Below are positions 3,525-63,856 of a stretch of 64,000 nucleotides of DNA, one piece after another; the stretch's first letter is position 1; the number at the start of each line of letters is the position of its first letter. Below the pieces are notes generated by a model. It ran no database searches. It was not told the origin of the DNA and saw only the letters and a program-made list of their open reading frames with translations. The translations under genes and the position numbers were made by a program. Source of the stretch: Euglena gracilis (Eukaryota); contig CP154954.1 in assembly GCA_039621445.1 (NCBI GenBank), forward strand, positions 26,548,954 to 26,612,953. The letters run 5' to 3'.

Positions 3525-4110
3525 CTGGCAGAGAACGGAACAGAATGAAAGAACAAATGAAAATGAACAACAACGTTAGAGGATGGAAGCGGCTGCAACA
3601 GAAACAGTGCTTGTTAGACTTGTTGATTCCAGAAAAGCGTATAACTTGTTTGGCCTTTGATGGTCAAAGCGGATTCATTCATCTTCATGCCATCATGAAG
3701 ATGGCAGCCAAACGCTCGCAGCAACAACTTGAATACATTTGTGAGCAAGTACATTACCAAAAACCCATTAGTTGCAAGGACCAGGAGGGTGGGGTATTCA
3801 GCAAAAATATAGTAGGAGCCAATGAGTGGTGTGGTCAGATGAGGGGAGGAGAAAACAACATGACTGAACAAAACAGTCCGCTTCTTACACAAAATGATTT
3901 CTTTCAACTGATTTGTATGTTGTTCAATTTGAAAGCACTGTGATATGAAGAGCAAAAATATCTCATTTCAGTCTGATGGATGTGTGTTGTCAGTCCGGTA
4001 CATGAGCTTTTTCAATGCATTGTCAGATTGATGTGCATTTTCAGGTCCGTGGATGCGTTTTCAGGTGGGTGGATGTGTGTTTTCAGTGGTGCACGTTCGC
4101 TTTCAGTCCA

Positions 4111-17070: not shown

Positions 17071-18226
17071 CTTCTGTGATGAACTCTTTCCAGACATTGA
17101 TGTTCTGGCACCACCAGTGTGCGGCATCAGCCCATGCGTTCCAACGTGTTTCGCCCACTTTGGACGGGAACGTTTCCTGCATCCCTTTGGATGACAGGAG
17201 TTTTTTCCACCGACGCCTTCGGGCAGCATACTTTGGTGTGGCAACCAAATATGCCCCAGGAAACAACACATCACTCAGCACCTTGAAATCTTGGTGGTTT
17301 TGAAGCGCACGGCCAACGTGATTCAACTTGTGCGCCATGCACAGCAGAAGCGTGCTCTTTGGCCAAAGGATTGACAGAACGTTTTTGTACGCAGCCACCA
17401 TGACAGAACCTTCATCACAAATCACAAAATCAATCAAATTTGTGTCCATGCCCAATCTGCTCAATGTATTATTCAATTGGCTGCAAATCTCTTTGTGTTC
17501 AACACCAGAAGACTTCCCTTGTCCTTCAAGAAACAGAACATCAATTGCAACATGAACCGACGCCGATATTGCAATGACTGCCACAGTGGCACACCCCGCA
17601 TCATCTGTCCATTCATCAAACATCAGTGCAATCCTTGACCCGGTCAAAAGGTCTTTGATCTTCGCGATTACTTCAAAATACAAACGTAAAACATTTTGAC
17701 TGGGGAAATAGTCACTTAAACGAGGGATGCACCCATGTATGTGCGTTGTTTTCTTCAACCATCCTCGGAAGCTGGGGTGATCAATCTTCTCAACAGGTAT
17801 GCCGGTGCACAAACACATCAACACCAAATCGTCTTGACGGTTGCGGTTCACCTCAGCAGGCTTCTGTGTGAGCATCCAGGGTGGCTTGCCTGCCAGTCAA
17901 TGGCAGAGGTTGGAGGACCTTCTTGGGTCCGTCTTCTTTCTTCTTTCTTCTTCATCTTTCCAAGACCGTTCTACACCGTCTTTGTGGCACTGCTTTTGAA
18001 GGTGTTGGTCAATTGGCAATTTCGTCTGGTGGTTGACACCTTTGCCACACGCAATGCACCACAAAATGGAGTGACTTCCTTCCATTCGGACTTCAAATGG
18101 TTCCCTCGAATATTGTCCAAATTGCAACAGTGACCCTTTCAACAGTGACCCTTTTTGCATAATGAGAACCTCTTCTGCCAACTCCTTTCCCTCGCTTTCT
18201 CTTTGGTTGGCTCTGCTGGTCCTCAA
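17070..18226 (-). pseudogene. hAT-family transposase remnant (N-terminal C2H2/BED-like finger plus RNase H-fold core), frameshifted and 3'-truncated
   Basis: ORF 18226-17897 has WCIAC...HLQKQCH. ORF 17875-17027 has GIPVEKIDHPSFRGWL, IALMFDEWTD, CMAHKLN and ETRWNAW, which are hAT hallmarks (DxWT, CxxH, TRW). Confidence 0.85.
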
Positions 18227-21198
18227 TGTCCTCCGAAACGGGGGTTGAATGTTGTGAAGCTAATGGCAGGCCAAAATGTCACAAAATACCAATATACATC
18301 CCGGCCTGCACGGAACATCTTCATCCAATTCAAGTGAAATGTGGGAGCAACCTTTTGTGCATTTTGACCCAAAAAAACACTGCACAAAAGCTTGGGTTGG
18401 AATTGCTTGAGACGGCCATTTTGTGAGTATGAGGAAAGCAAATTGAAATAATACAAATTTTTCAAAAAATGGAAACAAAACACAAATCGAGTGCAAAAAA
18501 AAAATCCGCAACGGACCTCTGAATGTTACTTGGAACAGTCGGATCCATCAAGAGACAATATGAGTATGTACAACCATTTAAAAAAATAAGATCAGAAAAT
18601 CAGAAAATGCGCATAAAAAACTGAAAAAAATGCGCAAAAAAATGCGCATTTTCCTAAAAATCAGGAAAATGTGCAAAAAAAAATGCGCAAAAATGCGAAA
18701 AAATACCGAAACGCATTCCCCCTCCCCTGGCACATGTCCACTGGACTGAAAGCGCACATCCATACGGATGTGCGCTTTCAGACTTGTGGATATGTGTTTT
18801 CAGTCCGGTGGATGTGTGTTTTCTGCTCGGTGGATGTGTGTTTTCTGTTCGGTGGATGTGTGTTTTCAGTCCGGTGGATGTGCGTTGCCAGTCCGCTGGA
18901 TGTGCTTTATCATTCCGGTGGATGTACGTTTTAAGTCCGGTGGATGTGCGTTTTCAGGTCGTTGGATGTGCGTTTTCAGTCCGGGGGGTCTGTGTTCGTT
19001 CCGGTGGATGTGCTTTTCCATTTGAGCGGATGTGTGTTTTCAAATTAGTGGATGTGTTTTTTCGTCCGGTGGATGTGCGTGTTCAGTCCGGTGGATGTGT
19101 GTTTTCACTCCGCTGGATGAGCATTTTCAGTCCAGTGGGTGTGTGTTTTCAAGTCGGTGGTTGTGCACTTTCAGTCTGGTGGATGTGTGTTTTAAGTCAC
19201 TTGGATGTTCATTTTCAGTCCAGTGGATGTGCATCAGTCCGGTGGAGGTGTGCTTTTATTCCGGTGGATGTGTGTTTTCAGTCCGGTGGAAGTGCGCTTT
19301 CAGTCCGGTGGAAGTGCGCTTTCAGTCCGGTGGATGAGTGTTTTCAGTCCGGTGGATGTGTGTTTTCAGTCCGCTGAACGTGCATTTTCAGTCCGGTGAG
19401 AGTGTGTTTTTTCAAATCGGTTGTTGCGCACTTTCAGTCCGGTGGAAGTGTGTTTTCAGCCAGGTGGATGTTTATTTTCAGTCCAGTGGACGTGCATCAG
19501 TCCGGTGGATGCGCGTTTTCAGTCCGGTGGACATGTGCTTTCAATCCGGTGGATGTGAAGTTTCAATCCGGTGGATTTGCATTTTCATTCCGGTGGATGT
19601 GCGACTTCAGTCCGGTGGATGTGTGTCTTCGATCTGGTGGATGTGTGTTTTCAGAATTGTGGATATGTGCGTATTCAGTCCGCTGGATGTGCGTTTTTAG
19701 TCCGGTGAGTGTGTGTTTCAATTCGGTGGTTGTGCACTTTCAGTCTAGTGGATGTGTGTTTTCAGCCAGGTGGATGTTCATTTTCAGTCCAGTGGACGTG
19801 CATCAGTCTGGTGGATGTGCGTTTTCAGTCTGGTGGATGAGCTTTTTCAGTTCAGTGGAATGTGTGTTTTCAGGTCGGTGGTATTTGAATTTTAAGTCCC
19901 GTGTATGTGCGTGTTAAGTCAGGTGGATGTGTGTTTTCAGTCCGCTGGTACAATTTCAGTCCCGTGAGTGTGTGTTTTCAAATCGGTTGTTGCGCACTTT
20001 CAGTCCGGTGGATGTGTGTGGTTTCAGCCAGGGGGATGTTCATTTTCAGTCCAGTGGACGTGCATCAGTCCGGTGGATGAGCGTTTTCAGTCCGGTGGAC
20101 ATGTGCTTTCAATCCAGTGGATGTGAATTTTCAGTCCGGTGGATGTGTGTCTTCAGTCCGGTGGATGTACGTTTTCAGTTTGGTGGATGTGCGTCTTCAG
20201 TGTGGTGGATGTGCGTTTTCAAACTTGTGGAGATGTGGTTTCAATCCGGTGGATGTGTGTTTTCAGTCAGGTGGATGTGGTTTTCTCAGTCCGGTGGATG
20301 TGTGTTTCAGTCTGGATATGCGTTTTCTGTCCGGTGGATATGTGTTTTCAATCCGGTGGATGTGCGTTCCGAGGTCGGTGGATGTGTGTTTTCAGTCCGG
20401 TGGGTATGTGTTCAGTCCGGTGGATGTGCTTTTTCAGTTCAGTGGATTTGTGTTTTCAGTCCGGTGGATGTGTGTTTTCAGTCCGCTGGATGTGCATTTT
20501 CAGTCCGGTGGGTGTGCGTTTTCAAGTCGGTGGTTGTGCACTTTCAGTTCGGTTGATGTGTGCTTTCAGTCAGGTGGGATTTCATTTTAAGTCCAGTGGA
20601 TGTGCATGAATCCCGTCAAGCCAGTCCGGTGGATGTGCGTTTTCAGTCCGCTGGGCATGTGCTTTCAATCTGGTGGATGTGCGTCTTCAGTCCGGTGGAT
20701 GTGTGTTTCAGTCCACTGACTGTGCGTCTTCAGTCCGGTGACTGTACGTCTTCAGTCTGGTGGATGTAAATTTTCAGACTCGTGGATATGCGTTGTCAGT
20801 CCGGTGGATGTGTGTTTTTAGTTCATGGATGTGCATTGTCAGTCCCTGGATAACCGGACTGAAAACGCACATCCACCGGACTGAATGCGCACGTCCACCA
20901 GACTGAAACCGCACGTACACCGTACTGAAAACACACATCCACTGGACTGAAGACAGACATCCACCGGACTGAAAATGCACATCCACCAGACATAAAACGC
21001 ACATCCACCGGACCCAAAACGCACATCCACCGGACTAAACACACACATCCACTGGTCTGAAGACGCACGTCCACCGGACTGAAAACACACATGCACCGGA
21101 CTGATACACAACACCAGACTGAAGACGCACATCCACTGACCTGAAAACACACATCCACCGGACTGAAAACCCACATCTGAAAGACTGAAAAAAAAAGT

Positions 21199-24100
21199 CG
21201 GGTATATGCTTTCTGACACATTTGCGTTTTCAGGCTGGTGGATGTGCTTTTCAGTCCAATGGATGTGCGTTTTCAGGCCGGTGGATGTGCGTTTTTACGC
21301 CGATGAAAATGTGTTTTCGGGGTGGATATGCATTTCAAGTTCTTTGGTGTGATTCTTCAGACTGTTTTTTTGGGGGGGGCGTTGCCAGGTGGATGTCCAT
21401 TTTCAGCCTGGTGGATGTGCATATTGAGTCCAATGGATGTGAATTTTAACTTCCCCTCTTGTCCAACGACCACTACCTCCCCCCCCCCTTGCCCAACGAC
21501 CACTAAATATCGCTACTGACTGGTGGTCGTTATTTTGGCCAAATATCGCTACTGACCGGGGGGTGGTCGTTAGACAAGACCGGGGTCAAAAAATTTTCTC
21601 CCGCGTGCACAAAATGGTCACAAAATGGTCATAAAATGGCCAAAGGTGGTCAAAATGGGGTAAAAAGTGGATAAAAGCGGTCAGAAGTGGCTTAAAATGG
21701 CCACAAATGTGAAAAAAAAAAATAGCCAGAAGCAGCCAAAAATTGGCATAAATGAAGCAAAAATGCATTCATAGCATCCAAAAGTGGCCAAATTTGCCAA
21801 ATGCAGCCCAGAGTGGCCAAAAGTGGCCAAAAGTGGCCCAAAATGGCCAAAACATGGCCAAAAAAAGGCCAAAAGTTGCCAATTTGCAGGAAACCAGGCA
21901 AAAAAAACTTGTTGACCAGGTACAAAATCTGCCATGAAAGCTGTAAGAAAAGGCTGGAGGTAAGAACGCGAACGTGTGGAAAAAAGATCACCTGGAAAAA
22001 GATCGCTACTGACCGGGGGGGTGGTCGTTGGACAAGGCCGGTCGTTGGACAAGGGGGGGGGAGGAGGTAATGTTCATCTCCGACTGGGGTGGAGGGCGGG
22101 CTAAAATAGCCAATGTTCGTCTCCGGGGGGTTGTTCGACAAAGGGGAGATTTTTGCCACTGTTGACCATTTTTGGCCTTTTCACCATCTTGGTTAACTCT
22201 TGGCAAAAAGGAAGGCCAAAAATGGCCAAAATCGCTTAAAAGCAAATAACATAATAAATAAAATTATTATAAGTTATATAAGTTATATAAAATATATATA
22301 CATATATATATGTATATATACATATATATACATATATGTATATAAATATATGTGTGTGTATATATACATATATATATAACAAAATTGCCAAAAAAAACAG
22401 CCAAAAATATTCATATATCCCCATATGGTCAATATTTTTGTTATGTCATTGGCCACTTTTAAGTGTTTTTGGCCACTTTTGACCACTTTTACCAAGAGTT
22501 AACCAAAATGGTCAAAAGGCCAAAAATGACCAACAGTGGCAAAAAAAAAATGGTCAACAGGGGACAAAAACCGACCAAAAATGGCCAAAGGTGACCAAAC
22601 GTGGCCAAAAAAAAAATACCCAAAGGTGGCCAAAAGTGGCCAAAAAAGGTCGGCCGAGTTTTCGCCGACTTCGACGAATTTTCGCCTTTTGCACACCATT
22701 TTGGTAAATTGTAGTCATTTTTTGAGAGGGCCACTGGTCTTCTTCAGCCCGATTGGGCTTTTACAGCCAGTTTGTGGTGGTCAATCCTAGCAAATTGCAA
22801 AAAAAAAAACGTAAAAAAAGCGAAACTAATCGCACAACTCTTCCCATACTCATGGGACCAACATCAGATACAAAAGGACCGCTTCTGACTGGGGGGGGGT
22901 TGTTGGACATGCAAGGTCCCTGGACAAGGAGGGGAGGTGATGACGGTGAATGGGCGTTGCAGGCTGGTGCACTTTGGTGCATGTGCACGCCGTATGTTTT
23001 TAAGTATGGATGTGCGTTTTCAGTCCGGTGGATATGCTTTTTTATGCCGGTGCATGTGCTTTTGCAAACTGTTGCACTTCGATGGATGAAGGTGATCAGT
23101 CTGGTGTATGTGCGTTATCAGGCTGCTGGATGTGCATGTTCGGTGCGGTGGATTTGCATTTGCTGGCATGTGTATTTTAGTGGATGTCCGTTTTCAGGTC
23201 AATGGATGTGCATTTTCAGTCCTGTGGAGGTGCGTCTTCAGTCCAGTGGACGTCCGTTTTCAGGTCGGTGGATACGTTTTCAGACCGCTGGATGTGTATT
23301 TTCAAGTGGCTGTATGTGCATATTCAGGTGTGTGGATGTGGGATTTCAGTCCAGTTGATGTGCGTGAACGCCTACAACACGGTGGACGTGTGTCTTCAGT
23401 CTGGCAGATGTGTGTTTTCAGTCCGGTGGATGTGTGTTTAGTCCGCTAGATGTGCATTTCTACGGGGGTGGATGTGTGATTTCAGTCTGGTTGATGTGCG
23501 TGTGTGTGACTTCAGTCCGGTGGACGTGCGTTTTCAGTCTGGTGGATGTGCGCTTTCAGTCCGCTAGATGAGCTTTTTCAGGTGGGTGGATATGCGGCTT
23601 CAGTCCGGTGGATTTGTGTTTTCAGTCCGGTGGACGTGTGTTTTCAGTCCGGTGGATGTGCATTTTCAGTCCAGTGGATGTATGTTTCCAGGCTGCTGGA
23701 TGTACTTTTGCAAACCAGTGCAGGAGGGTGGACGTGCACTAGCAGCTCGGTGAACGTACGTTTTCAGGTAGACGGATGTGTGTTTTCAGTTCAGTGGATG
23801 TGCCAGTTTTCAGTCCGGTGGATTCGGTCTGGTGGATGTGTGTTCTCAGTCCGGTGGATGTGTGTTTTCAGTCTGGTGGATGTGCATCTTCTGTCCGGTG
23901 GATATGTGTTTTCAGTCTGGTGGATGTGCGTTTTCAGTCCGGTGGATGTGTGTTTTATGTCCGGTGGATGTGTGTTTTCAGTCCGGTGGATGTGCGTTGT
24001 CAGTCTGGTGGATGTGTGTTCTCAGTCTGGTGGATGTGCGTTATCAATCTGGTGGATGTACGTCTTCAATCCGGCGGATGTGTGTTCTCAGTCCGGTGGA

Positions 24101-27100
24101 TATGTGTGTTTTCAGGTAGGAGGATGTGTGTTAATTCCGAGATATGTGCTTTTTCAGCTTGGTGGATACGTATTCTCAGTCCGGTGGATGTGCATATTCA
24201 GCCTGGCGGATGTACGTTTTTAGTCTGGCTGATGTGTGTTTTAAGGTCGGTGGACGTGCGGTTTCAGTCCGGTGGATGTGCGTTTTCGGGTCGGTAGATG
24301 TGCGTTTTCAGTCCGGTGTCTGTGCAGTTTGGCGCTGTGGATGTTCATTTTCAGTCTGGCTGATGTGTGTTTTCAGCCTGGTGGATAAGCAGTTGCAGGT
24401 CCTGCAAACCCACATCTGAGTGATGTGGGTTTTCGGGTGGGCGAAGATGTGGGGGGATCTGTGCTTTCAGTCCGGTAGATGTGCTTTTTTCAGTCCGGTG
24501 GATGTGTGTTTTCAGTTTCATGGATATCCGCTTCCAGTCCGGTGGATGTGCGTCTTCAGTGCGTGTATGTGCTTTTTCAGTCCGGTGGATGTGGGACTTC
24601 AGCACGGTGGACGTATATTTTAAGTCCCGTGGATGTATAGTCTCAGCTTGGTGTATGCATCTTCAATCCAGTGGATGTGCGTTTTCAGTTTGGAAAATGT
24701 GTCTTTTCAGGTGGGAGGATGTGCGTTTTTAGTCCAGTGGATGTGCGTCTTCAGTCCGGTGGATGTGCGATTTCAGGTCGGTGGATGCGAGTTTTCAGGT
24801 AAGTGGATGTCCGTTTTCAGGTCAATGGATGTACATTTTCATTCCTGTGGACGTGCGTCTTTAGTCCGGTGGACGTCCGTTTTCAGGTTCGGTGGATACG
24901 AGTTTTCAGTCCAATGGATGTGTATTTTCAGTCCGTTAGATGTACACTTTCAATCCATTGGATGTGTGTTCAGTTAGGTGGATGTGTGTTTTCAGTTGAG
25001 TGCACGTGTGTTTTCAGTCCGGTGGAGTGTGCTTTCAGCGAGGTGGAAATGTGTTTTCAGTGAGGTGGATATGTGTTTTCAGTCCTGTGAATGTGAGTTA
25101 AAGCGGTGGATGTGCGTTTTCAGTGAGGTGAATGTGTTTTCTCAGTCCGGTGGATGTGCGTTATCAGTCCGGTGGATGTGTGTTTTCAGTCAGGTAGACG
25201 TGCATATTCAGTTCGGTGGATGTACGCTTTCATTATGGTGTCTGTTCATTTTCAGTGCGGTGTATGTGTGTTTTCAGTCCAGATGTGTGTTTTCAGTCCG
25301 GTGGACGAGCATTTTCAGTCAGGTAAATGTGCGTTTTCAGTCGGGTGGATGTGTGTTTTCTGTCCAGTGCACGTGCGTTTCCAGTCCGGTGGTTGTGCAT
25401 TTTCAGTCCGGTGGATTTGCATTTTCAGGTGGGTCGATGTGCGTTTTAGTCCGGTGGACGTGTGGGTGCGTCTTCAGTCCGGTGGACGTGTGGGTGCGTC
25501 TTCAGTCCGGTGGACGTGTGTTCTCAATCCGGTGGATGTACGGTTTCAGTCCGGATGTGTGCTTTCAGTCCGGTGATGAGCATTTTCAGGTAGGCGGATG
25601 TGCGTTTTCAGTCCGGTGGATATGTGTTTTCAGTCCAGTGCACGTGCCTTTCCAGTCTGGTGGATGTGCATTTTCAGTCCGGTGGATTTGCATTCTCAGT
25701 CCGGTGGACGTGTGTGTGCATATGCAGTCCGGTGGACGTGTGCTTTCAATGTGGTGGATGTGAATTTTCAGTCCGATGGACGTGTGTTTTCAGGTGGGTG
25801 AATGTGTGTGTTCAGTCCGGTGGATGTACGTTTTCAGTCTGGTGGATGTGCATTTTCAGTCCAGTGGATGTGCATTTTGAGTCCGGTGGATGTTCGTTTC
25901 TGTCCGGTGGATGTGCATTTTCAGTCTGGTGGATGTGTGTTTTCAGTCCAATGGATGTGCGTTTTCAGGTGGGTGGATTTGCGTTCTGAGTCCGGTTGAC
26001 GTGTGTGTGCGTCTGTTTTCCGGTGGATGTGCGTTTTCAGTCCGATGGGTGTGCATTTTCAGTACGATGGTTGCGTGTTTTCAGTCCGGTGGATATGTAT
26101 TTCTGTCCGGTGGATGTGAGTCTTCAGTCTGGTGAATGTGTGTTTTCAGTCCGGTGGATGTACATTATCAGTCTGGTCTTCAATCCGGTGGGTGTATGTT
26201 TTCAGTGAGGTGGACGTGCGTTTTCAGTCCGGTGGATGTGCATTTACAGTCCGATGAATGTGTGTTTTCAGTCCGGTGGATGTGCTCTTTCAGTCTGGTG
26301 GATGAGCACTTTCAGTCCGGTGGATGTGGGTTTTTGGGCCATTGGATGTGCGTTCTCAGTCCGGTGGATGTGTGTTCAGTGCGGTGGATGTGCTCATTCA
26401 ATTGACAGAATGTGTCTCTTCAGTCCAATGGATGTGCGTTTTCATTGGGGTGAACGTGTGTTTTCAGTCCGGTTGATGTGTGTTTTCAGTGCGGTGGATG
26501 TACATTTTCTGTCAGGTGGACGTGTGTTTTCATTCTGGTGGATGTGTGTATTCGCTCCTCTGGGCGTGCGTCTTTAGTACGGTGGATGTGCCTTTTCAGT
26601 CTGGTGGACACGTGTTATCAGTACACTGGTGTGTGTTCTCAGTCCGGTGGAAAGGTGTGTTTTCAGTCAGGTGGATGTGCATTTTCAGTCTGGTGGATGT
26701 GTGTTTTCAGTCTGCTGGATATGCGTTATCAATCCGGTGAGGTGGGTTTTCAGTCCGGTGGATGTGCAGTATGAGTCCGGTGAACGTGCGTTTTCTGTCC
26801 GGTGGGTGTGCCTTCCAGTCCGGTGGATGTGCGTTTTCAGTCCGGTGGAGGTAAGTTTTCAGTGAGGTGTATGTGCGTTTTCAGTCCAGTCGATGTTCAT
26901 TTTCAGTCCAGTGGATGCGCGCTTTCAGTACGGTGGATGTTTGTTTCCTGTCCGATGGATGTGTGATATCAGTCCACTGAGTATGGGTTTTCAGTCAGGT
27001 GGATGTAAGTTTTCAGTCCGGTGGGCGTACATTTTAAGTCCGGTGGATGTGGGTTTGCAGTGCGGTGGATGTGCCTTTTCAGCAAAATGGGTGGTGCACT

Positions 27101-27893
27101 TTCAGTACGGTGGATGTGTGTTTTCAGTCCAGTGGATGTGCATTTTTAGTCCGGTGGATATGTGTTCAGTCCGGTGATTGTTCGTTTTCAGTCCGGTGGA
27201 TGTGCCTCTTCAGTCCGGTGGATGTGTGTTTTCAGTCCGGTGGATGTACGCTTTCAGTCCGGTGGGCGCACGGTTTAAGTCCGGTGGATGTGGGTTTGCA
27301 GTGCAGTGGATGTGTGTTTTCAATCCGGTGGCTGTGTGTTTTCAATCCGGTGGATGTGCGTTTTTAGTCTGGTGGATATGCGTTATCAGTCCACTGGATG
27401 TGCGTTTTCAGTCCGATGGACGTGCACTTTCAGTCCGGTTCCTGTGTGATTCAGTCTTGTGGATGTGCATTTTCAGTCCAGTGGATGTGCATTTAATTCG
27501 GGAGGATGTGTGTTTTCAGTCCGGTAGATGTACACTTTGAGTCCGATGGATTTTCATTTTTAGTCCTGTGGAGGTTCATTTTCTGTCCGGTGGATGTTCA
27601 TTTTCAGCTTGGTGAACGTTCATTGCAATTCCACTGGATGTGAGTTTTAAGTCCGGTGGATGTTTGTTTTCAGTCCGGTTAATGCGCGCTTTCGGTGAAC
27701 GTGTGCCTTCAATCCGGTGGATGCGCGGTTTCAGTCCGGTGGATGTTCATTTTCAGTCCGGTGGATGTGCACTTTTTGTCCGGTGGATGTGCCCTTTCAG
27801 TCCGGTCAATGTGTGTGTTCAGTCTGGTGGATGTGTGTCTTCAGTCTGGTGGATGTGTGTTCAGTCCGGTGGGTGAACATCTTCAATCCGGTG
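21199..27893 (+). repeat. Segmental duplicate of about 5465-11880
   Basis: The same succession of satellite variants and identical ORF translations (e.g. 8091 vs 24144, 11163 vs 27178), with scattered substitutions and indels. Confidence 0.9.
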
Positions 27894-30800
27894 ACGGGGG
27901 TTGAATGTTGTGAAGCTAATGGCAGGCCAAAATGTCACAAAATATCAATATAAACCCCCCCCCCAAATATAAGAAACCCCTCGCTATAAGAAACCTCCAA
28001 ATATAAGAAACCCTTTGGCTGATTTTCAGCCGACACCCAAATATAAGAAACCCCCAAATATAAGAAACCCCTGGGCTGTTGGACGTCAATCCAAATATAA
28101 GAAACCCCTCATTTTCACCATGGGTCACAGCAAATCTCAAGGCGTGATCAACTCAAAGATGAAGCCAATCTAGTATATTGCTTCTTTGCAAAGCAAGAGT
28201 TCAGAAGCAACTGCTTTTTGGAAACACCTGTCTGTGTCACGACCCCCTTCCCCACTGTTTGAATGGCAGTCAGACATGAGGACAATCCTACACACAGTGG
28301 TCACATGTAATTAATTATATGAAGGAACCGAAGGAAGAAAAAGTTCCATTTATAAGAAACCCTTGGGGCCGGCCTTCGACACCCAAATATAAGAAACCCC
28401 CAAATATAAGAAACCCTTTGGGCCGATCGGCCGACACCCAAATATAAGAAACGGGTTTCTTATATTTGGGGGGGGGGGGGGTTTACATCCCGGCCTGCAC
28501 GGAACATCTTCATCCAATTCAAGTGAAATGTGGGAGCAACCTTTTGTGCATTTTGACCCAAAAAAACACTGCACAAAAGCTTGGGTTGGAATTGCTTGAG
28601 ACGGCCATTTTGTGAGTATGAGGAAAGCAAATTGAAATAATGCAAATTTTTCAAAAAATAGAAACAAAACACAAATCGAGTGCAAAAAAAAAATCCGCAA
28701 CGGACCTCTGAATGTTACTTGGAACAGTCGGATCCATCAAGAGACAATATGAGTATGTACAACCATTTAAAAAAATAAACCTGCAAAAAAATGTGCAAAA
28801 AAAATCAGAAAATGCGCATAAAAAACTGAAAAAAATGCGCAAAAAAATGCGCATTTTCCTAAAAATCAGGAAAATGTGCAAAAAAAAATGCGCAAAAAAG
28901 CGAAAAAATACCGAAACGCATTCCCCCTCCCCTGGCACATGTCACTGGACTGAAAGCGCACATCCATACGGATGTGCGCTTTCAGACTTGTGGATATGTG
29001 TTTTATGTCCGGTGGATGTGTGTTTTCTGCTCGGTGGATGTGTGTTTTCTGTTCGGTGGATGTGTGTTTTCAGTCCGGTGGATGTGCGTTGCCAGTCCGC
29101 TGGATGTGCTTTATCATTCCGGTGGATGTACGTTTTAAGTCCGGTGGATGTGCGTTTTCAGGTCGTTGGATGTGCGTTTTCAGTCCGGGGGGTCTGTGTT
29201 CGTTCCGGTGGATGTGGTTTTCCATTTGAGCGGATGTGTGTTTTCAAATTAGTGGATGTGTTTTTTCGTCCGGTGGATGTGCGTGTTCAGTCCGGTGGAT
29301 GTGTGTTTTCACTCCGCTGGATGAGCATTTTCAGTCCAGTGGGTGTGTGTTTTCAAGTCGGTGGTTGTGCACTTTCAGTCTGGTGGATGTGTGTTTTAAG
29401 TCACTTGGATGTTCATTTTCAGTCCAGTGGATGTGCATCAGTCCGGTGGAGGTGTGCTTTTATTCCGGTGGATGTGTGTTTTCAGTCCGGTGGAAGTGCG
29501 CTTTCAGTCCGGTGGAAGTGCGCTTTCAGTCCGGTGGATGAGTGTTTTCAGTCCGGTGGATGTGTGTTTTCAGTCCGCTGAACGTGCATTTTCAGTCCGG
29601 TGAGAGTGTGTTTTTTCAAATTGGTTGTTGCGCACTTTCAGTCCGGTGGAAGTGTGTTTTCAGCCAGGTGGATGTTTATTTTCAGTCCAGTGGACGTGCA
29701 TCAGTCCGGTGGATGCGCGTTTTCAGTCCGGTGGACATGTGCTTTCAATCCGGTGGATGTGAAGTTTCAATCCGGTGGATTTGCATTTTCATTCCGGTGG
29801 ATGTGCGACTTCAGTCCGGTGGATGTGTGTCTTCGATCTGGTGGATGTGTGTTTTCAGAATTGTGGATATGTGCGTATTCAGTCCGCTGGATGTGCGTTT
29901 TTAGTCCGGTGAGTGTGTGTTTTCAAGTCGGTGGTTGTGCACTTTCAGTCTAGTGGATGTGTGTTTTCAGCCAGGTGGATGTTCATTTTCAGTCCAGTGG
30001 ACGTGCATCAGTCTGGTGGATGTGCGTTTTCAGTCTGGTGGATGAGCTTTTTCAGTTCAGTGGAATGTGTGTTTTCAGGTCGGTGGTATTTGAATTTTAA
30101 GTCCCGTGTATGTGCGTGTTAAGTCAGGTGGATGTGTGTTTTCAGTCCGCTGGTACAATTTCAGTCCCGTGAGTGTGTGTTTTCAAATCGGTTGTTGCGC
30201 ACTTTCAGTCCGGTGGATGTGTGTGGTTTCAGCCAGGGGGATGTTCATTTTCAGTCCAGTGGACGTGCATCAGTCCGGTGGATGAGCGTTTTCAGTCCGG
30301 TGGACATGTGCTTTCAATCCAGTGGATGTGAATTTTCAGTCCGGTGGATGTGTGTCTTCAGTCCGGTGGATGTACGTTTTCAGTTTGGTGGATGTGCGTC
30401 TTCAGTGTGGTGGATGTGCGTTTTCAAACTTGTGGAGATGTGGTTTCAATCCGGTGGATGTGTGTTTTCAGTCAGGTGGATGTGGTTTTCTCAGTCCGGT
30501 GGATGTGTGTTTCAGTCTGGATATGCGTTTTCTGTCCGGTGGATATGTGTTTTCAATCCGGTGGATGTGCGTTCCGAGGTCGGTGGATGTGTGTTTTCAG
30601 TCCGGTGGGTATGTGTTCAGTCCGGTGGATGTGCTTTTTCAGTTCAGTGGATTTGTGTTTTCAGTCCGGTGGATGTGTGTTTTCAGTCCGCTGGATGTGC
30701 ATTTTCAGTCCGGTGGGTGTGCGTTTTCAAGTCGGTGGTTGTGCACTTTCAGTTCGGTTGATGTGTGCTTTCAGTCAGGTGGGATTTCATTTTAAGTCCA

Positions 30801-31392
30801 GTGGATGTGCATGAATCCCGTCAAGCCAGTCCGGTGGATGTGCGTTTTCAGTCCGCTGGGCATGTGCTTTCAATCTGGTGGATGTGCGTCTTCAGTCCGG
30901 TGGATGTGTGTTTCAGTCCACTGACTGTGCGTCTTCAGTCCGGTGACTGTACGTCTTCAGTCTGGTGGATGTAAATTTTCAGACTCGTGGATATGCGTTG
31001 TCAGTCCGGTGGATGTGTGTTTTTAGTTCATGGATGTGCGTTGTCAGTCCCTGGATAACCGGACTGAAAACGCACATCCACCGGACTGAATGCGCACGTC
31101 CACCAGACTGAAACCGCACGTACACCGTACTGAAAACACACATCCACTGGACTGAAGACAGACATCCACCGGACTGAAAATGCACATCCACCAGACATAA
31201 AACGCACATCCACCGGACCCAAAACGCACATCCACCGGACTAAACACACACATCCACTGGTCTGAAGACGCACGTCCACCGGACTGAAAACACACATGCA
31301 CCGGACTGATACACAACACCAGACTGAAGACGCACATCCACTGACCTGAAAACACACATCCACCGGACTGAAAACCCACATCTGAAGGACTG
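27894..31392 (+). repeat. Segmental duplicate of about 18238-21188 (hAT end plus satellite)
   Basis: Starts ACGGGGGTTGAATGTTGTGAAGC as at 18238; identical ORFs (19927 vs 30132). Confidence 0.9.
27953..28483. mobile_element. TA-duplicating MITE (Tc1/mariner-type), 531 bp
   Basis: TIR AACCCCCCCC..AAATATAAGAAACCC. The paralogous empty site at 18290-18300 (CAATA-TA-CATC) shows the TA duplication directly. Confidence 0.92.
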
Positions 31393-33425
31393 AAAGCGCA
31401 CATCCACCGGACTGAACACCTACCTCCACCGGACTGAAAACACAAGTACGAGCGAAGTGAAAACACACATCCACTGGCTTGAAAAATGTATATGCTTCAG
31501 CCTGGAAATGCAGGCTGAAAACGCACATCCACCAGACTGAAAGCACACATCCACCGGACTGAAAACGCATATCCAGACTGAAAAACACATCCACCGTACT
31601 GAAAAACCTCATCCACCGGACAGAAAAAGGCATTTGCACCGGACTGAAAACGCATATCCACAAGTCTGAAAACGCACATCCACCAGACTGAAAACGCACA
31701 GTCACCAGACTGAAAACACACATCCACCAAACTGAAAACACGCATACACCGGACTGATGATGCACATCCACCGGACTGAAAAACGCGAATCCACCGGACT
31801 GAAAACACACATCCACCGGACTGATGCACATCCACTGGACTGAAAATGAACATCCACCTGACTGAAAACACACACATCGACCGGACTGAAAGTGCACAAC
31901 CACCGACTTGAAAACACACACCTACCAGACTGAAAATGCACATCCAGCGGACTCATAACACACATCCACCGGACTGAACACGCACATCCACCAGACTAAA
32001 AACACACATCCACCGACCTGGAAACACACATCAACTCAACTGAAAAAGCACTTCCACCAGACTGAACACAGACGCACCGGACTGAAAACACACATCCACC
32101 GACCTGAAAACGCACATCCACCAGACTGATAACGCACATCCACCGGACTGAAAACACACATCCACCGGACTGAAAGCACACATGGATGCGCGTTTTCAGT
32201 CAGGTGGATGTGTGTTTTCAGCTCGGTGGATGTGCGTTTTCAGTCCGCTGAATGTGCATTTTCAGTCCGGTGGATGTGCGTCTTCTGTCCGGTGGATGTG
32301 CGTATTCAGTCCAATGGGGGCATATTTTCAGTCTGGTGGCAGTTTTGTTTCCAGTCCTAAGGATGTGTGTTTTCAGTAGCGGTGGTTGTGTGTTTTCAGT
32401 CCGGTGGAAGTGGTGGTTTCAGTCCGGTGCAGTGTATCTAATTTGGAGGATGTGTGTTTTCAGTCCGGTGGATATGCGTCTTCAGTCCGATGGACGTGTG
32501 ACTTCAGCCCGGTGGATGTGCTTTTTCAGTTGAGTGGATGTGCGCTTTTAGTCCATGTTTTCAGTCCGGTAGACGTGTGTTTTCAGTCTGGTGCGATGTG
32601 GGTTTTCAGTACGGTGGATGTGTCTCTTCTCTGCGGTGGATGTGTGTTTTCAGTCCGGTGGATGTGCGCACTCAGACTGGTGGATAAACGTTTTCAGTCC
32701 AATGGATGTGCGTTATCGCTTTGGTGGATGTGTGTTTTAAGTATGGTAAATGTGTGTTTTCAGTCCGGTGGTTGTGCGTTGTCAGTCCGGTGGATGTGTG
32801 TTTTCAGTCCGGTGGATGTTCTTTTTCAGTTGAGTGGATGTGTGTTTTCAGTCCGGTGGATGTGTGTTTTCAGTTGAGTGGATGTGTGTTTTCAGTCCGC
32901 TGGAATGTGCGTTTTCAGTCCGGTAGGTGTGTGTTTTCAAATCGGTGGCTATGCACTTTCAGTCTGGTGGATGTGTGTGGTTTCAGCCAGGTGGACGTTC
33001 ATTTTCAGTTCGGTGGACACGCATCAGTCCGGTGGATGTGTGTTTTCAGTCCGGTGGACATGTGCTTTCAATCTGGTGGATGTGCGTTTTCAGTACGGTG
33101 GATTTGTGTTTCCCTTTGGTGGATGTGCGTCATCAGTCCGCTAGATGCGCATTTTCAGTCCGGTGGATGTGCGTTATCAGTCTGGTGGATGTGCGTTTTC
33201 AGGTCGGTGGATATGTGTTTTCAGTCCGGTGGGTGTGTTCAATCCGGTGGATGTGCACTTTCAGTCTGGTGGATGTGCGTTATCAGGTCGGTGGATGTGT
33301 GTTTTCAATCCGGTGGATGTGCATTTTCAGTTTGGTGGACATGTGCTTTCAATCCGTGGATGTGCGTTTTCAGTCCGGTGGATGTGTATTTTCAGTCCGG
33401 TGGATGTGTGTTTCCAGACTGATGG

Positions 33426-33855
33426 CAGGGTTCGATATAAGGAGAGGAGGGGGGGGTCCGGACCCCCACCCCCCTGCGGGCCAGGAGGGGGGGGGTGGTG
33501 GGGGGGACACCCCCCCCACCTAAACAGTGGCGCGGTCAGGGTGACCGATTTTTGGCCCGGCGCAAAGCGCCGGGCCGAAAAATTTTGACCCCCCAAAACG
33601 ACCAAAAGTGCCAATTTGGGCTTTTTGGGCAAAAATTGGCCAAAAATGCAAAAAAAAAATTCGGCACGAAGCGCCGGAGGAAAAAATTGACCCTTTTGGG
33701 GGGGGTCCCGGGTACCCCCCCGAGGGTCGGTCCGGACCACCTTGCAGGTGGGGGGGGGGTCCGGACCCCCCCCCTGCGGGCCAGGAGGGGGGGGGAGGTG
33801 GGGGGGACACCCCCCCCCACCTAAACCATGTACGCCCTCCTTATATCGAACCCTG
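33426..33855. mobile_element. hAT-type MITE, 430 bp
   Basis: Perfect 19-bp TIR CAGGGTTCGATATAAGGAG and perfect 8-bp TSD ACTGATGG (33418-33425 and 33856-33863). Confidence 0.93.
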
Positions 33856-34016
33856 ACTGATGGATGTACGTTCTCATTCCAGTGGATATGCGTTTTCACT
33901 CCGGTGGATGTGCGTCTTAAGGTCTTCATTCCAGTGGATGTGTGTTTTCAGTCCGCCGGATGTGAGGTTTTTAGTCCGGTGGATGCGCGTTATCAGTCTG
34001 GTGGATGTGCACTTTA

Positions 34017-35568: not shown

Positions 35569-35610
<42 letters not shown>

Positions 35611-35631
35611 GGGGGGGGGGGGGGGGGGGGT

Positions 35632-35662
<31 letters not shown>

Positions 35663-35682
35663 GGGGGGGGGGGGGGGGGGGG
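35569..35682. repeat. Poly-G tract of about 115 nt inside a satellite unit
   Basis: Read directly; it may be a sequencing or assembly artefact. Confidence 0.8.
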
Positions 35683-38600
35683 GTCCGGTGGATGTGCGTT
35701 TTCAGTCTGGTGGATGTGCGGTTTCAGGTCGGTGGATGTGTGTTTTCAGTCTGGTGGATGTGCAGTTTCAGGTCGGTGGATGTGCGTTCTCAGTCCGGTG
35801 GATGTGCGTTATCAGGTCGGTGGATGTGCTTTTTCAGTTGAGTGGATGTGTGTTTTCAGTCCGCTGGATGTGCATTTTCAGTACGGTGGACGTGCGTGTT
35901 CAGTCCGGTGGATGTGTGTTTCCAGTCAGCTAGATGTGCATTTTCAGTCCGGTGGGTACCCACCGGACTGAAAACACACATACATTGGCCATTGGCTGAT
36001 AACACACAACACAGGACTGAAGACGCACGTCCACCGGACTGAAAACACACATCCACCAGACTGAAAGTGCACAACCACCGACTTGCAAACACGCACCGGA
36101 CTGACAACGCACATCCATCGTACTGAAAAAAACGTCTCCACCGGACTGAAGCACACATCCACCGGACTGAAAATGAACATCCACCGGACTGAAATATACA
36201 TCCATCGGACTGAAAAAGCACATCCACTGGACTGAAAACGCAATCCACCGGACTGAAAACACACATCCACCGGAGAGAAGGCGCACATCCACCGTACTGA
36301 AAACGCACGTCCACCCGACAGAAACAGCACATCCACCTCACTGAAAACACACACCCAGCGAACTAAAAACACATATATCCACCGGACTGAAAATGCACAT
36401 CCACTCAACTGAAAAAGCACATCCAACGGTCTGAAAATGTACATCCACTGGACTGAAAGTGCACATCCACCAGACTGAAAACGCGCACCACCCAACTGAA
36501 AACCTCACATCTGGCCGACTGAAAACATACATCCACCAGACTGAAAGGGGAAAACAACCAAAAAGACTGGTTTTTGTGACAATTTGGTTGATTTTAGGTT
36601 CATCCTTGTGATCAAGGAAGGGAAATTTGAAACCATCATCAAGGCTGGGTTCATTTTCAGTCCAGTGGACGTGCATCAGTCCGTTGGATGTGGGTTTTAA
36701 GTCCGGTGGATCTGTGATTTAAATCTGGTGGACGTCCATTTTCAGTCCGGTGGATTTGTGTTTTCAGTCCGGTGGATGAGCGTCTTCAGTCCAGTGGATG
36801 TGTGTTTTCAGTCCGGTAGATGTGTGTTTTCAGTCCGTGCATTTCCAGGCTGGAGCATATGCATTTTTCTGGCCAGTGGATGCGTGTTTTCAGTCCAGTG
36901 GATGTGCGTCTTCAGTCCGGTGCATGTGTGTTTCCAGTCCGATAGATGTGTGTTTTCAGTCCGGCGGATGTGCGTTATCAGTCCGATGGATGTGTGTTCT
37001 CAGTCCGGTGGATATGTGTTTTCAGTCTGCAGGATGTCCGTTTTCAGTCCGGTGGATGTGCGTTTTCAGTCCGGTGGATGTGCGTTTTCAATCTGGTTGC
37101 TGTGTGTTTGCAGTCCGCGGAATGTGAGTATCAGTCTGGTGGATGTGTCTTTTCAGTCCAGTTGATGTAGGTTTTCAGTACAGTGCATGTGTGTTTTTCA
37201 GTCCGGTGGATATGTTTTTTCAGTCCGGTGGACATGCGTCTTCAGTCCGGTGGATGGGCATCTTCGGTCCGGTGGATGTGCATCTTCAGTCCGGTGGATG
37301 TGCGTCTTCATTCCAGCGGATGTGCGTTTTCAGTCTGCCGGATGTGAATTTTCAGTCCGGTGGATGTGTCTTTTCAGTCCGGTGGATGTGCATTTTAAGT
37401 CCGGTGGATGTGTGTTTTCTGGTGGATGTGCGTCTTCAGTCCGGTGGATGTGCGTCTTCAGTCCGGTGTTGTGTGTTATCAGTCCGGTGGTGCTTTTCAG
37501 TCCGGTGGATGCGCGGATTAAAGACCGGTGGATGTGTGTTTTCAGTCCGGTGGATGTGCATTTTCAGTCCGATGGATGTGCTTTTGCAAACCAGCGCAAT
37601 TCCGTGGATTTGCGCTTCCAGTCGGGTGGACGTGACTTTCCATGGATGTGGGCTTTCAGGCCGGTGGATGTGCGTCTCAAGGCTGGTGCGTGTACTTTTG
37701 CAAAATCGTTGCACTCTCGTGGATGTGTGTTATCAATCTGGTGGATGTGCGTTTCCAGGCTGGTGGATGTGTGCTTTCAGGCTGGTGGATGTGTTTTTTT
37801 CAGACCATTGGAGGTGTATTTTGGGGCTGGTGCAATCCCATGGCAGGTATGTGTGTTTTCAGTCTGGTGGACGTACATTTTCAGTCCAGTGGATGTGCAT
37901 TTTCAGTCCGGCGGCAATGCGCTTTCAGGCGGGTGGATTGGCATATTCAGGCAGGATCAAATAAGGAGGAAACAGCTAAAAAGAGATGGGGGGGGGCGGC
38001 GGACAAATTGCATGAAAAAGACATGCAAACAGCCCTCGATAGGCCCCCCAAATACCTCAAATTCAGCACCAAGCTTTAAGACCTGAAAGGGATCATCCCC
38101 AACACTCCTGCGGATGGGGGGGGGGGGGGGTGCTCGGAACCCATTTCAATGCAACCTGTGTTTTTTTTTGCATTCATGCAGATATAGAAGGATAGTATCC
38201 ACACTGGGGATCCTCCCATTTACTGAAAAGGAAAATTCACTGAAATTCACGAAGGATCACGTAATGCTTTTGCAAAGCCATTGTTGAATGCAGGGGCAGG
38301 GGGTGGCATTTGAATACCTGGAAACCATGGGGTCAGCCAGCAGCCTGTTTCCATCCAGGCTAATTTTTTTCAGCTCTGGCAACCCCCCTCCCAGGGGCCG
38401 CTAAGCGATGCCTGGGGCTGTGCATGATTCCCTTACTCGTCCCATATCACCTGAACCCAGGGGTGAACTAGACCCGGAATTATCAAACTGTAAAAACACC
38501 CACAGCATTGCCAAATTACAAACTATCAATTTTATGATTAAAATTTTGAGCTGGAGAGTCCAGTTAAAAATAAGTCATTTGAGGCGGCTCCGGGACTGAA

Positions 38601-40926: not shown

Positions 40927-43900
40927 CACCCAAGGCAGCTGGTGCTGCACGTTGGCGCTTAACCGGTTGTCCGCCACATCCATCCGCACCTGCATCCGCA
41001 CCGCCACCTCGCAGAAGGTGCTTAGTGCCGACCTCGGCAGCCCCCGATCAGTCCCAGTGTCGTGACTTATGCAACGCTGTTCGACGAAACAACGTCAACA
41101 ACCCAAAACTGGGTGGGGGGGGGGGATTTTGGGGTCGCGGTGCCGTTTTAAAACAGTTGGAAACGTGTGGGAGATGTCCCATCAAAAAATTACCCTTTCG
41201 TCCAACCCAGGCTGAAATTGAGTTTAAATTTAACTGACTTCAGTGGAGGGAGGTCTCCGAGAGCCATATGCCCACGTTCAAGCAGTCCCCTCATATGTCA
41301 CTCCGAGACCAGTCGGATGGAGTCGGCCACACCTCAAACTGCAGCCTGGTCAAATCTTCTCCCATTACAGATCCTCCAGAGAGATTGCTCTCACAATCCT
41401 GCGCATCCTCGGGTGTCCAAATTTGGTGCACCAGAACTTGGAATGAACATCTGGCCAGACAATTTTGTGGAGGGGGGGGTCCGGGCCAACCTACCCGCCC
41501 CTTGGGGGGGCTTGGGGGACCCACTTTTAGGGAGTGAATCTTGGGGTCAAAAAAATTTGCCGTTTCCCACCGAGAACAGAGGAAACCCCCGTTCAGCCCG
41601 ACCCCCACCCTGGCAGGGGGGAGGCTCGGCCTGGACCCCCCCCCCGGGGTCACGAAACTTTAAAAAAAAAAAATCAACAATCACACCTGCTTACTGCAAA
41701 GAAAGAAAATCACCACAAATCAAATTTCCGTTCTGACTTCTGGTGTTCAGCGGGCAGTGGGCAGCATGATTCCCAACGTCCAGGAATCCAGCACCATCAA
41801 ACCTTTGCCCAGAAAATAAGGCCCGTTGAGAGATGGTTTCTCCCGAGGCAGAGCGGCAGGGGGGTCGCCGCGCGCAGCCCCCCGGTCGGTGATGAAGTTG
41901 CCCGGCAGGCTCAGCACAAGGGACTGCAGGCCGGCGGTCCGCAGCGCCGCCAGCGCCTCCGCCCCGTTGTCCATCACAAAGTTGTACCCCAAACACAGGC
42001 CTTGCTGGAACTCCAACCCAGAAAGTGTTCGTTCCCTGAGGCCGCAGGACGTTTGCCTCCCAAGCTATTCTCCCGTCGTGGGCGGGGGGGGGGGGTCAGC
42101 ATTCCTTTTGATGAGAAAAGGGGTGTGTTGTGTGTAGGCCATTACCTAAGGACCCCGGGGGTGGGCCCACCGGCTTGCCATTTTGCCAGCACTGGGAAAG
42201 AAATTCCTCCACGCTGCACGCCGAGGTAGAAATGACGTCTTTTTAAGTTTTGGGGGTCCAGAAAAAACTTCGGCGCTTCACGCAAATCACTGGAAAAAAT
42301 TTCCACTGGCTGGCCCTGCTGGCAGACCCCCCAGGGGGGGTCCACTAGGATTTCCAGTAGCCAAATTTGGACTTGCTGCAGTCCAGCCAGGGTACTGCGA
42401 ACCCTTGAGCCAGGCTGTGCGTTCTGGAAGGTCCCCTGGAGTGAGGTGGAGGTTTGGAACGTTGCGAGCGTCCAGAAAGAGCTCCAAAATGACAAAAAAA
42501 AGTGCGCAAAAGGGGCCGTCGTTAACCACTTTGCGGGTGTCCTGGGGCCAGGGGTTGACAACAAAAAAAAGGGTCGGGGGAGGACAGCAAATGGGGGAGG
42601 GCAGCCACGCCTGGCCAGGTACAGCGCCAGGTGTGTGACGGACCCGGCGGCGAGGGCCGGGCCCAGGGCCAGCCCCGAGGCGTCCACGCCGTTGTCCTCC
42701 AGCCGCAGGGCGAGGCGGGCGAGGGCCCCTCGCACGGCCCGGCCCCGGTGGCTGGATGGACGGGGGGGGGGGGCAGGGCTTCCACCCACAGGGGGGGGGG
42801 GGTATGCAACAAGGCTCCTCGGAATATGCAATGCAAAAAAAAAATGCAAAAAGTGCAAGTCGTGTGTCAATTCCTTCAGGAGCACACTTTTACACTGCGG
42901 AGGACTTGGAAAAAATTCACTGGCTCAAAAACTGGCAACATTAAAGGAAAATGTGACACAAACTTGTGAAGTGATGGGGTTGGTTCTCCGAGTCCACTCA
43001 TATTTCATCAGGCAACTACTGATTATGTGAAATTGGTCCAATTGGAGCAATACGCCTGTGCAAATGCCTGAACAAAATAAAGCAGGCAAACTATGCCAAA
43101 AAAAAATGCAAAAAAATGAGACTTTTCACAAACTGCTCATTGTGCAAAAAAAAGATAATGCAAATTATGCAAAAAAGCGCAAATTTTCAAGATTATTGAT
43201 TATGCAAACAAAATGCAAACTATGCAACTTGCATATCCCCCCCTGCTGCCCACTTCTGAGGGCGGCAGATACGTTACCCCCCCCCCCCGGGAGGGGAGCG
43301 ATGGACGGGGGGAGGGGCATTTGGGCAGAGGGGGAGATGGCGAGACAACCCTGAGGCTGCGCCGCACCTCGAACAGGAGGGCTTTGTGTCGGGTTGGACT
43401 CAATTGTCACACGGTGCTGAGGTGCAAGCTGCGCCCATGCACCACTGAGCAAAATTGGCACGACAGAAGGCTTGGGAATTGCTTACATCATGTGAGGCAG
43501 GCACATGCCTCGGCAATATGGCGTAACGGAAGGGCCTGCACAGGGGGGAGGGGGCAAGCCACCGCACACAGCAGAGACGTGGACGGGTTTCCAAACAGCG
43601 GCAGGAGGCCTGGCCAGGCTGTGGCCAGCCCCACATCTCGGAAGGCCGAAAAGTCTCACGACCGCAGATGGTCGGCGCTCGGCAGTACCCCCGTTGCCTT
43701 ACCCCCCCCCGCCGACCGCGTTATCTGCCCAACCCGGAGTGCCATGGGGTGCCTGGCCACGCTCCTGGGGGGGGGGGGGGTCAGTCCTGCCTGCCTGGTC
43801 GTGGGAGAAATTTGTTATAAAAAAAGGGCTTTTATCTTTGACCGAGTGCCCGCGCACTCCCAATCACAAGCCTAAATCCCGTAGGGGAGTCGGATGTGGT

Positions 43901-45662
43901 TGAGGGGAGGAGGGTCAGCTACGCCTGGAATTCCAGGCGACACCAACTGGGTTGAGCCACTGGTCCGACCAACGCCCTCAGCACGCAGGGGCGAGGGAGC
44001 AACAGCCTGGACCCAAAGTCGCTGCTCCTTCCATCCGGTTCTGCCCACGCTTGCATCCATGTATGTTTGCACTGGTGGGTCAGTGTTGTTGTGTGCGTAC
44101 AATGTGCATGATTTGTTGGGGTCGCCTCACTGTCAAAGCCTAGGCTGTCATTCAGTGTTGCTGCTGGGAACCCTCTGGGGGGGGGGGGGGAGATCAAGCA
44201 ATATCAAAGAAAAGTGGAGAGACATTAATCAGACAGTGGTGAGATGCTGTCGCAAATTCCTTTCCCGTTTTCCGCTGTGAAATTCCAAAAACTTAAAGTT
44301 GAAGAAAAAATCAATTTGTTAAGGGTATGTTCTTGTGAGTCAGTATTGCTGATTTAGAAACCCATCATCAGATCTTGATTTGTGTTTACCTGCCCGCCCC
44401 CGATTGCATGAATGGCAGCGTCACCACACAGTGTTTGTCTGGTTTAGGTCGAGATTCCAATTGTCTTGCAAGGGGAGGGGGGGACATTACCCGAGGCCGA
44501 GGGTCGTTCTAACTGGGGTCACCTCCAAACTGCACGGGGGGGGGGGGATAGATGCAGCGTGGCCCGTGGCCCAAGTCCAGGTCCAGCACGGTCAGGGAGG
44601 GCAACTGGGCGGCCTTTGCTGCCAGCGCCGCTGCCCCCGCCTCCCCAACGTCATTGCCCCACAGGTTGCCGCCAGTGCCGGGCTGGCACTCCTGCCGACC
44701 AGGCCTCTTGTCAACACCCTGGTGGGGGGGGGGGTCCTGCTCAGCCCCACCCCTGGGTTTTGTTTGGGCCTTGGTCAGGGCGTTGTTTTGGAACCCCCCG
44801 GGGGTCCAGTGCAGAGACTGGAAAATTAAACTGTAAACTGGAAAAAGGCGACCTCCCCCATAGGGGTCCCCCGGCTGGAGCTGGGACCAACCAAGGTCAA
44901 ACCAGGTGCCAGAAAAAATGGCTCCGTGCGGATTTCCGGTGGTCGCCGTCGTGGTGGTCGGGCCGACCAGGTCGGGCCGACCACCATTTTTCCGCAACAC
45001 CCCCCCTTTTTGAACTTTTAAGCCCCCCCCCCCCCCCTGGTCGGTGGCTAGTTGGTGGGCATAAAAATGGTCTGTGGTGGCCAAAATCACCCGGAAATGC
45101 ATTTATGGGCAGTTCCCCCCCAGGACCCTGTCCTGTGGCGGTCCTGGGGCCCCAGTCTACCGCCATGCGCCCCGAAGGCCGCCTGGCCGAAGGCCGAAGG
45201 CCGCCGCAGCGGCCGAAGGCCGCTGCAATTCAGAACCTGAAAAGTTGATGATGTTATTTAAAGGCGTAGGGTTAGGGTAAAGTTTCCATTCCTAACTGTC
45301 CCATCCCATCCCCTCAACGTCGTTAAATTGGTGTCTGCAGGGGACCCAGCGAACCCAAAGAGGCGCCCAACTAGGGTTAAAAACATTGGGGGACCCGAGC
45401 GAGGCGCCGAAGGCGCCGAGCGAGGGTCCCCCAATGTGTATTAACCCTAGTTGGGCGCCTCTTAGGGGTCCTTTTGGGCTCCCTCCCCAGCAGTGGTGAA
45501 AATGATGCAATAGGCCCTAAGAAAAATGCCCCTTTGAAGTGTTTTTTGGAGTACATTGAAATTTGCTCCCGGCGTGCTGTTGTTTTTGGATCCTTGGACG
45601 ATGTTTTTTTTTTGGGATGGGCAGGATGGTGCATTCATGCGCGTGAACTTTTCAAAACGCAG

Positions 45663-45717
<55 letters not shown>

Positions 45718-59147: not shown

Positions 59148-60190
<1,043 letters not shown>

Positions 60191-63738: not shown

Positions 63739-63856
63739 TATGTATGTATGTATGTATGTGTGTATGTATGTATGTATGTATGTATGTATGTATGTATGTA
63801 TGTATGTATGTATGTATGTATGTATGTATGTATGTATGTATGTATGTATGTATATG
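63739..63856. repeat. (TATG)n microsatellite, right flank of the 660-bp array
   Basis: Read directly from the sequence. Confidence 0.95.

Follow-up and report, generated by a model that had tools for sequence, protein, structure and literature searches.

The stretch of Euglena gracilis DNA considered here, 64,000 nucleotides of contig CP154954.1 (GCA_039621445.1, positions 26,548,954 to 26,612,953; hereafter the window), carries four short elements that begin CAGG, end CCTG and are flanked by matching 8-nt sequences, which we take to be MITEs (miniature inverted-repeat transposable elements). It also holds the exon pieces of a leucine-rich repeat (LRR)-type gene with inferred introns of the non-conventional euglenid kind, and the remnant of a hAT-superfamily transposase. 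The geometry of the elements matches the code published for non-conventional splicing in euglenids, and the origin of such introns is considered below in the light of this match.

Four short inverted-repeat elements and their flanks

The elements lie as follows (positions are those of the window; no strand is assigned to the elements).

M1, 33426-33855 (430 bp; 33418-33863 with the duplications), MITE inside a 22-bp minisatellite
M2, 55232-55717 (486 bp; 55224-55725 with the duplications), MITE between the LRR exon pieces 56679-56873 and 54638-54748
M3, 59352-59771 (420 bp; 59344-59779 with the duplications), MITE inside a 4-bp microsatellite
M4, 48536-49168 (633 bp; 48528-49176 with the duplications), MITE inside an inferred 8.5-kb intron of the LRR gene

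They were obtained by a scan for perfect inverted ends of at least 11 bp with 8-nt flanks matching at 7 or more of 8 positions, which gave four clean cases outside low-complexity DNA and minisatellite. M1, M2 and M3 had been described in the initial annotation of the window and were recovered at the same coordinates, with CAGG/CCTG termini, perfect inverted ends of 19, 16 and 17 bp, respectively, and matching 8-nt flanks (in M1, 33418-33425 and 33856-33863 are identical at 8/8 positions). The figure for M1 is that of the repeat finder, which gives 18 bp for M2 and 18 nt for M3, where the duplication pairs by chance and extends the apparent ends. M4 is a fourth element, absent from that annotation, with 16-bp perfect ends and 8/8 flanks. 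CAGG starts and CCTG ends are thus common to all four. The first five bases read CAGGG in three elements and CAGGC in the remaining one, whose fifth base departs from YARNG, the consensus for the start of hAT-type inverted repeats.

When flank-repeat lengths of 1-20 nt were tried for each element, the exact repeat was 8 nt in three of the four, with lengths of 1 and 2 also matching trivially in M4. The flanks of M3 match at 4, 8, 12, 16 and 20 nt, and the length of its duplication is unreadable because the element lies in a 4-bp microsatellite. In M1 the surrounding minisatellite provides a record of the site before insertion: deletion of the element together with one 8-nt copy rebuilds the 22-bp register, which is broken if both copies are kept.

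The structure of the elements is far above chance. The window contains 15738 inverted pairs of 14-mer words, and 8/8 flanks occur in exactly four of them, all starting CAGG; none of 100 first-order Markov sequences, with a mean of 1.86 inverted pairs each, contained a pair with 8/8 flanks. The observation is therefore real, and we regard the four elements as recent insertions of small non-coding transposons.

The four elements have in common only short internal modules, and G/C homopolymer palindromes are frequent within all of them. M1 has, just inside its inverted ends, a subterminal direct repeat of 77 bp whose copies (33449-33525 and 33752-33826) share 94% identity; its central part is approximately 70% like 16820-16987, within the larger hAT-like element described below. 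The family of M3 has one further, older copy within the window:

42135-42412, plus strand, older M3-family copy nested in intron 41991-42616, with local alignments at 78-80% identity and an uncertain left end

Element geometry and the published splicing code

In 2014, conserved CA/TG dinucleotides were reported at +4,+5 and -7,-6 of non-conventional euglenid introns and a MITE origin was proposed, with transposable elements described as not yet identified in euglenid genomes at that time (PMC3935182). In E. agilis, CAG was later found 3 bases in from the donor and CTG 8 bases from the acceptor, and knock-in to an E. gracilis reporter exon gave the code N3-CDG...CH'G-N5-6 followed by a purine, in which the middle bases D and H' are complementary and a helix adjoins (PMC12501133, 2025). 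The donor spacer is strictly 3, a 1-nt change abolishing splicing; the acceptor spacer is 5, with one additional base (6) tolerated. The features of the code are sufficient for splicing, since wholly artificial 50-bp inserts that had only these features and 12 paired bases underwent splicing as natural introns do; removal of the pairing from these inserts broke splicing, and C as the first base of the downstream exon failed in the test. Direct repeats at the junctions were present in 84.4% of E. agilis introns (PMC12501133). The intron rule that the initial annotation had derived from the window is the same as this experimentally defined code.

A MITE together with one copy of its duplication has the same layout of CAG/CTG, helix and spacers as the non-conventional introns, for which CAG at +4 to +6, CTG at -8 to -6, a helix, spacers of 3 and 5 nt and a preference for a purine have been reported (PMC12501133, PMC3935182). 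The sum on which the initial annotation had relied, 3+5=8, is exact: whichever way the element lies, adding 3 and 5 nt to it gives the same length as adding one 8-bp duplication. An intact message after cuts at 3 and 5 nt thus follows from the 8-bp duplication and the published spacers, as a matter of layout arithmetic and not of an observed cut. The minimum-energy fold was computed for either strand of every element, and in all eight folds the terminal helix, 16-21 bp long, began exactly at the CAG/CTG. Every published feature is present, in sequence and fold, in M2 on both strands and in M1 on the minus strand; M2 thereby has all features of the intron code, including the purine, on the minus strand, which is that of the LRR gene. 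The other five element-orientations lack the preferred purine only.

Two of the elements, M2 and M4, lie within the span of the LRR-type gene, and M4 is inside the longest of its inferred introns. The gene and its introns are listed below.

41873-56873, minus strand, LRR-type gene span, with a repeat period of ~29 residues across the exon pieces
56679-56873, 54638-54748, 53791-53976, 53133-53204, 44563-44667, 42617-42729 and 41873-41990, minus strand, LRR exon pieces
53977-54637 (661 nt), minus strand, inferred non-conventional intron with a 9-bp perfect terminal helix, CAG...CTG; 2/8 in the test for an 8-nt junction repeat
44668-53132 (8465 nt), minus strand, inferred non-conventional intron with a 10-bp perfect terminal helix, holding M4; 2/8 in the same test
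41991-42616 (626 nt), minus strand, inferred non-conventional intron with a 5-bp helix, holding the old M3-family copy; 4/8 in the same test

Junctions of the LRR gene were called by combining the published code with the reading frame and the register of the repeats. Three of the six were resolved, each with a CAG/CTG helix (5-10 bp) and spacers of 3 and 5, and at each of these the longest helix gave an LRR peptide in register; the remaining three fit neither the non-conventional code nor GT/GC-AG, and further small LRR exons may exist. Matches of the gene to Pfam LRR_6 are weak (E 0.18-0.94). A protein search with exon 56679-56873 found only one LRR protein, 38% identical, and aligning that protein to the window by tblastn gave nothing informative. 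Exon 53791-53970 had no match in a protein search of public collections, and no transcript-derived protein for the gene was among the matches to these two exons.

Probable hAT affiliation of the elements and other features of the window

CAG-type ends with an 8-bp duplication are the classic signature of hAT elements, in which CAG ends are ordinary. The hAT label of the initial annotation is further supported by a transposase remnant of this superfamily in the window; the label rests on evidence because the remnant sits in an element with similar ends, CAGGGG/CCCCTG.

15274-18729 (3.5 kb), minus strand, defective hAT-like element with CAGGGG...CCCCTG termini and, at either end, short subterminal repeats
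17069-18127, minus strand, hAT-superfamily transposase remnant with one in-frame stop, in which the C-terminal ~200 residues of the closest relative are missing
27894-28934, no strand assigned, another, incomplete copy (95% identity) of the hAT-like element's right end, belonging to a segmental duplication

The ends of the 3.5-kb element match at 13 of the first 18 positions, and a perfect 7-bp direct repeat adjoins each end. A minus-strand open reading frame (ORF), 17030-17896, gave a Pfam match to DUF659 at E=9e-5, under the curated cut-off, and has 262 relatives at E<=1e-3 among 1.84 billion representatives searched, the best being 66% identical and 607 residues long. Ten relatives were scanned, and DUF659 was detected in eight and Dimer_Tnp_hAT, above its cut-off, in four; the alignment of the closest relative with one of these four runs from end to end (E=3e-27). 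By tblastn, residues 55-409 of the closest relative correspond to 18127-17069, through one stop, and the transposase gene is broken, since the last ~200 residues of the relative have no counterpart. A search of solved structures with the ORF gave no meaningful match, no metagenome loci were found for the transposase, and a cluster look-up of its relatives returned no names. Since the ends of this element and those of the MITEs are alike at CAGG(G) only, 15274-18729 is a relative within the superfamily and not a demonstrated source of the MITEs; an intact autonomous partner sharing the MITE ends was not present within the window. Other repeats are nested in or adjoin 15274-18729, for example a G-run module at ~16050-16170 and 17000-17060.

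Much of the remaining window is repetitive. Across 7458-37585, the 22-bp minisatellite forms very large arrays that run in either orientation, show higher-order periods of 44 and 66 bp and generate long open frames that are not genes. Two large internal duplications pair ~7458-13839 with 23511-27893 and 18295-20845 with 28484-31050. The tandem repeat at 60186-63785 consists of six 660-bp copies, of which five agree at 100% in the 300 nt compared; its ORFs have no Pfam match, and an Rfam scan of the whole window, this repeat included, gave 0 matches. At 47999-48249, 251 bp with 30-bp perfect inverted ends start with CTG, and a short motif is repeated inside and nearby; the flanks match at 3/8, so an 8-bp duplication is absent, and this may be another kind of small element. 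Identical 15-bp inverted ends and identical flanks occur at 6425-6957 and 22159-22560, a repeated element. On the minus strand at ~2300-3600, translations look like fragments of a protein with an RNA-recognition motif, interrupted by one intron or more, and a G run of ~115 nt occupies 35569-35683.

Origin of non-conventional introns

The observed elements and their match to the published code can be placed in a single scheme. A hAT transposase with an 8-bp staggered cut would leave a MITE between 8-bp duplications. The ends of this MITE, CAG...CTG with 13-16 further paired bases inward, would be the signal read by non-conventional splicing. Cleavage 3 nt ahead of the CAG and 5 nt beyond the CTG would then take an exonic MITE and one copy of the duplication out of the RNA and restore the original message in either orientation of the MITE, and euglenid non-conventional introns would have arisen largely from hAT-type insertions. 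We infer that the MITE families would be spliced when exonic, the match to the code being causal and not a coincidence. On balance, we lean modestly towards the view that the elements are young hAT MITEs whose ends act as the splicing signal and that the non-conventional introns of euglenids descend largely from such insertions. The stronger proposition, that the splicing code exactly inverts hAT integration at the level of RNA and that living hAT MITE families are the present-day source of new introns, is put forward tentatively, as possible rather than probable.

The literature bears on this proposal at several points. The 8-nt repeat that the initial annotation had predicted at young introns has one published counterpart, by repeat length: gapC intron 4 of E. 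agilis ACOI 323, the one strain-specific intron known, has junctions with eight-nucleotide direct repeats, longer than those of the other introns studied, which the authors explain by double-strand-break repair (PMC4770533, 2016). This intron is considered young because it is strain-specific. A 2024 review labels the CAG/CTG motif 'TIR' and the junction repeats 'TSD-like', and the terms "hAT" and "8 bp" are both absent from it (PMC11282704). A MITE origin and 'TSD-like' junction repeats are therefore already in print, and of the novelty considered in the initial annotation, the general idea is known; the link to hAT and 8 bp, the source elements and the superfamily were not found in the literature searched, which lay mostly outside subscription journals.

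Several findings weigh against a hAT origin of the introns. A purine would open the downstream exon in only three of the eight element-orientations (M1 minus; M2 on both strands), and M4 has C at this position whichever way it is read, C being what failed when tested in the published work. With the tolerated acceptor spacer of 6, the frame would not be restored. The terminal helix is required for splicing, and its presence in old introns is therefore no evidence of transposon origin. None of the four elements was seen in an exon or as a spliced unit within the window. The M3-like stretch was tried as a candidate for the whole 41991-42616 intron and rejected, as alignment identified it as a nested older copy; the idea of a MITE forming a whole intron thus found no case in the window. 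The MITEs have perfect ends of 16-19 bp and intact 8-bp duplications, whereas the inferred introns of the window have neither. The initial annotation had noted that the 8-nt repeat is eroded in the introns; at the three inferred introns the scores of 2, 2 and 4 of 8 are at chance (~1.9) and give no signal over a control of 300 CDG-ended inverted repeats outside satellites (mean 1.85/8). Elements of intermediate age were sought window-wide among all perfect inverted repeats of at least 9 bp, a scan that dropped M2 and M3 owing to the chance lengthening of their pairing by the duplications, and none was detected. The MITE ends and those of the transposase-bearing element have only CAGG(G) in common. 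hAT target sites have a consensus with T at position 2 and A at position 7, and none of the four duplications, a very small sample, fits it.

Some of these findings would be expected if the elements are real hAT MITEs and 3+5=8 is a coincidence, an RNA-cutting machinery measuring from the helix and the junction repeats arising by break repair or microhomology. The chance-level result of the 8-nt test, the lack of any window MITE seen as an intron and the CAG ends that hAT elements ordinarily carry are all compatible with this account. The tolerated spacer of 6 (PMC12501133) and the authors' own reading of the 8-nt repeat of gapC intron 4 (PMC4770533) are likewise in its favour. We nevertheless find it unlikely, as three independent features agree, namely the terminal trinucleotides, the adjoining helix and the equality of spacer sum and duplication length, the repeat at the sole young intron known measures exactly eight (PMC4770533), and break repair leaves the inverted ends unexplained. 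The causality might also run the other way, with an older code of other origin and hAT-type elements that mimic it and are tolerated in genes as introner-like parasites. The copies in the window, which lie in or near gene introns or in satellites and not in exons, are consistent with such an order of events, as are the introns of diplonemids, a sister group, which are also non-canonical with inverted G/C-rich ends (PMC12621601). It leaves the equality of spacer sum and duplication length unexplained, unless insertions shaped the system, and non-conventional introns are still gained within species (PMC4770533); we regard it as quite improbable.

That the elements belong to another superfamily with ~8-bp duplications, such as P or Mutator-like elements, is highly improbable in our view. 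The 4-5 nt of the ends common to the MITEs and the transposase-bearing element, the misfit of all four duplications to the hAT target consensus and the match of the window ORF to DUF659 under the curated cut-off would favour it, but the sole transposase remnant found in the window is of the hAT type and lies in a CAGGGG/CCCCTG element, and an 8-bp duplication beside CAG-type ends is what classically marks hAT.

The match bears on two questions, the mechanism by which most introns of Euglena are removed and the source of these introns; a MITE origin has been under discussion since 2014 with neither source elements nor superfamily named. If the fit between hAT MITEs and the splicing code is causal, the superfamily would be named and the sum of the spacer lengths accounted for, the 8-nt repeat reported for a young intron could be reread as a transposon footprint, and a non-spliceosomal case would be added to the introner picture of intron gain. 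If the code is indeed the RNA-level inverse of integration and living MITE families supply new introns, an explanation would follow for the odd 3-nt/5-nt rule as well as for the codominant place of such introns in Euglena. The four elements are concrete candidates for the existing EgGSL2 reporter.

Among known systems, the recently gained gapC intron 4 of E. agilis ACOI 323 resembles the predicted hAT-type footprint in the length of its 8-nt junction repeats, the published reading being double-strand-break repair (PMC4770533). hAT-superfamily MITEs and Ac/Ds-type elements on the one side and the MITEs of the window on the other are alike in the 8-bp duplication and in short inverted ends beginning CAG. 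The subterminal repeats of the Ac/Ds type are matched by the larger element of the window, its BED-like finger and DUF659 by the transposase of that element, and relatives of this transposase carry the hAT dimerisation domain; the target sites in the window differ from the hAT consensus.

Introner elements occur in Micromonas, Aureococcus and Amoebophrya, and are reported to have been treated by Huff et al. in 2016. Introners are transposon-like, with inverted ends and short direct repeats across the exon/intron borders, one repeat copy being spliced out (PMC7789003). In Amoebophrya these repeats are 3-5 nt long, compared with 8 nt in the Euglena window (PMC7789003). Further, introners are mostly removed by the spliceosome, whereas the non-conventional introns of euglenids are handled by a non-spliceosomal system that releases them as circles (PMC11282704).

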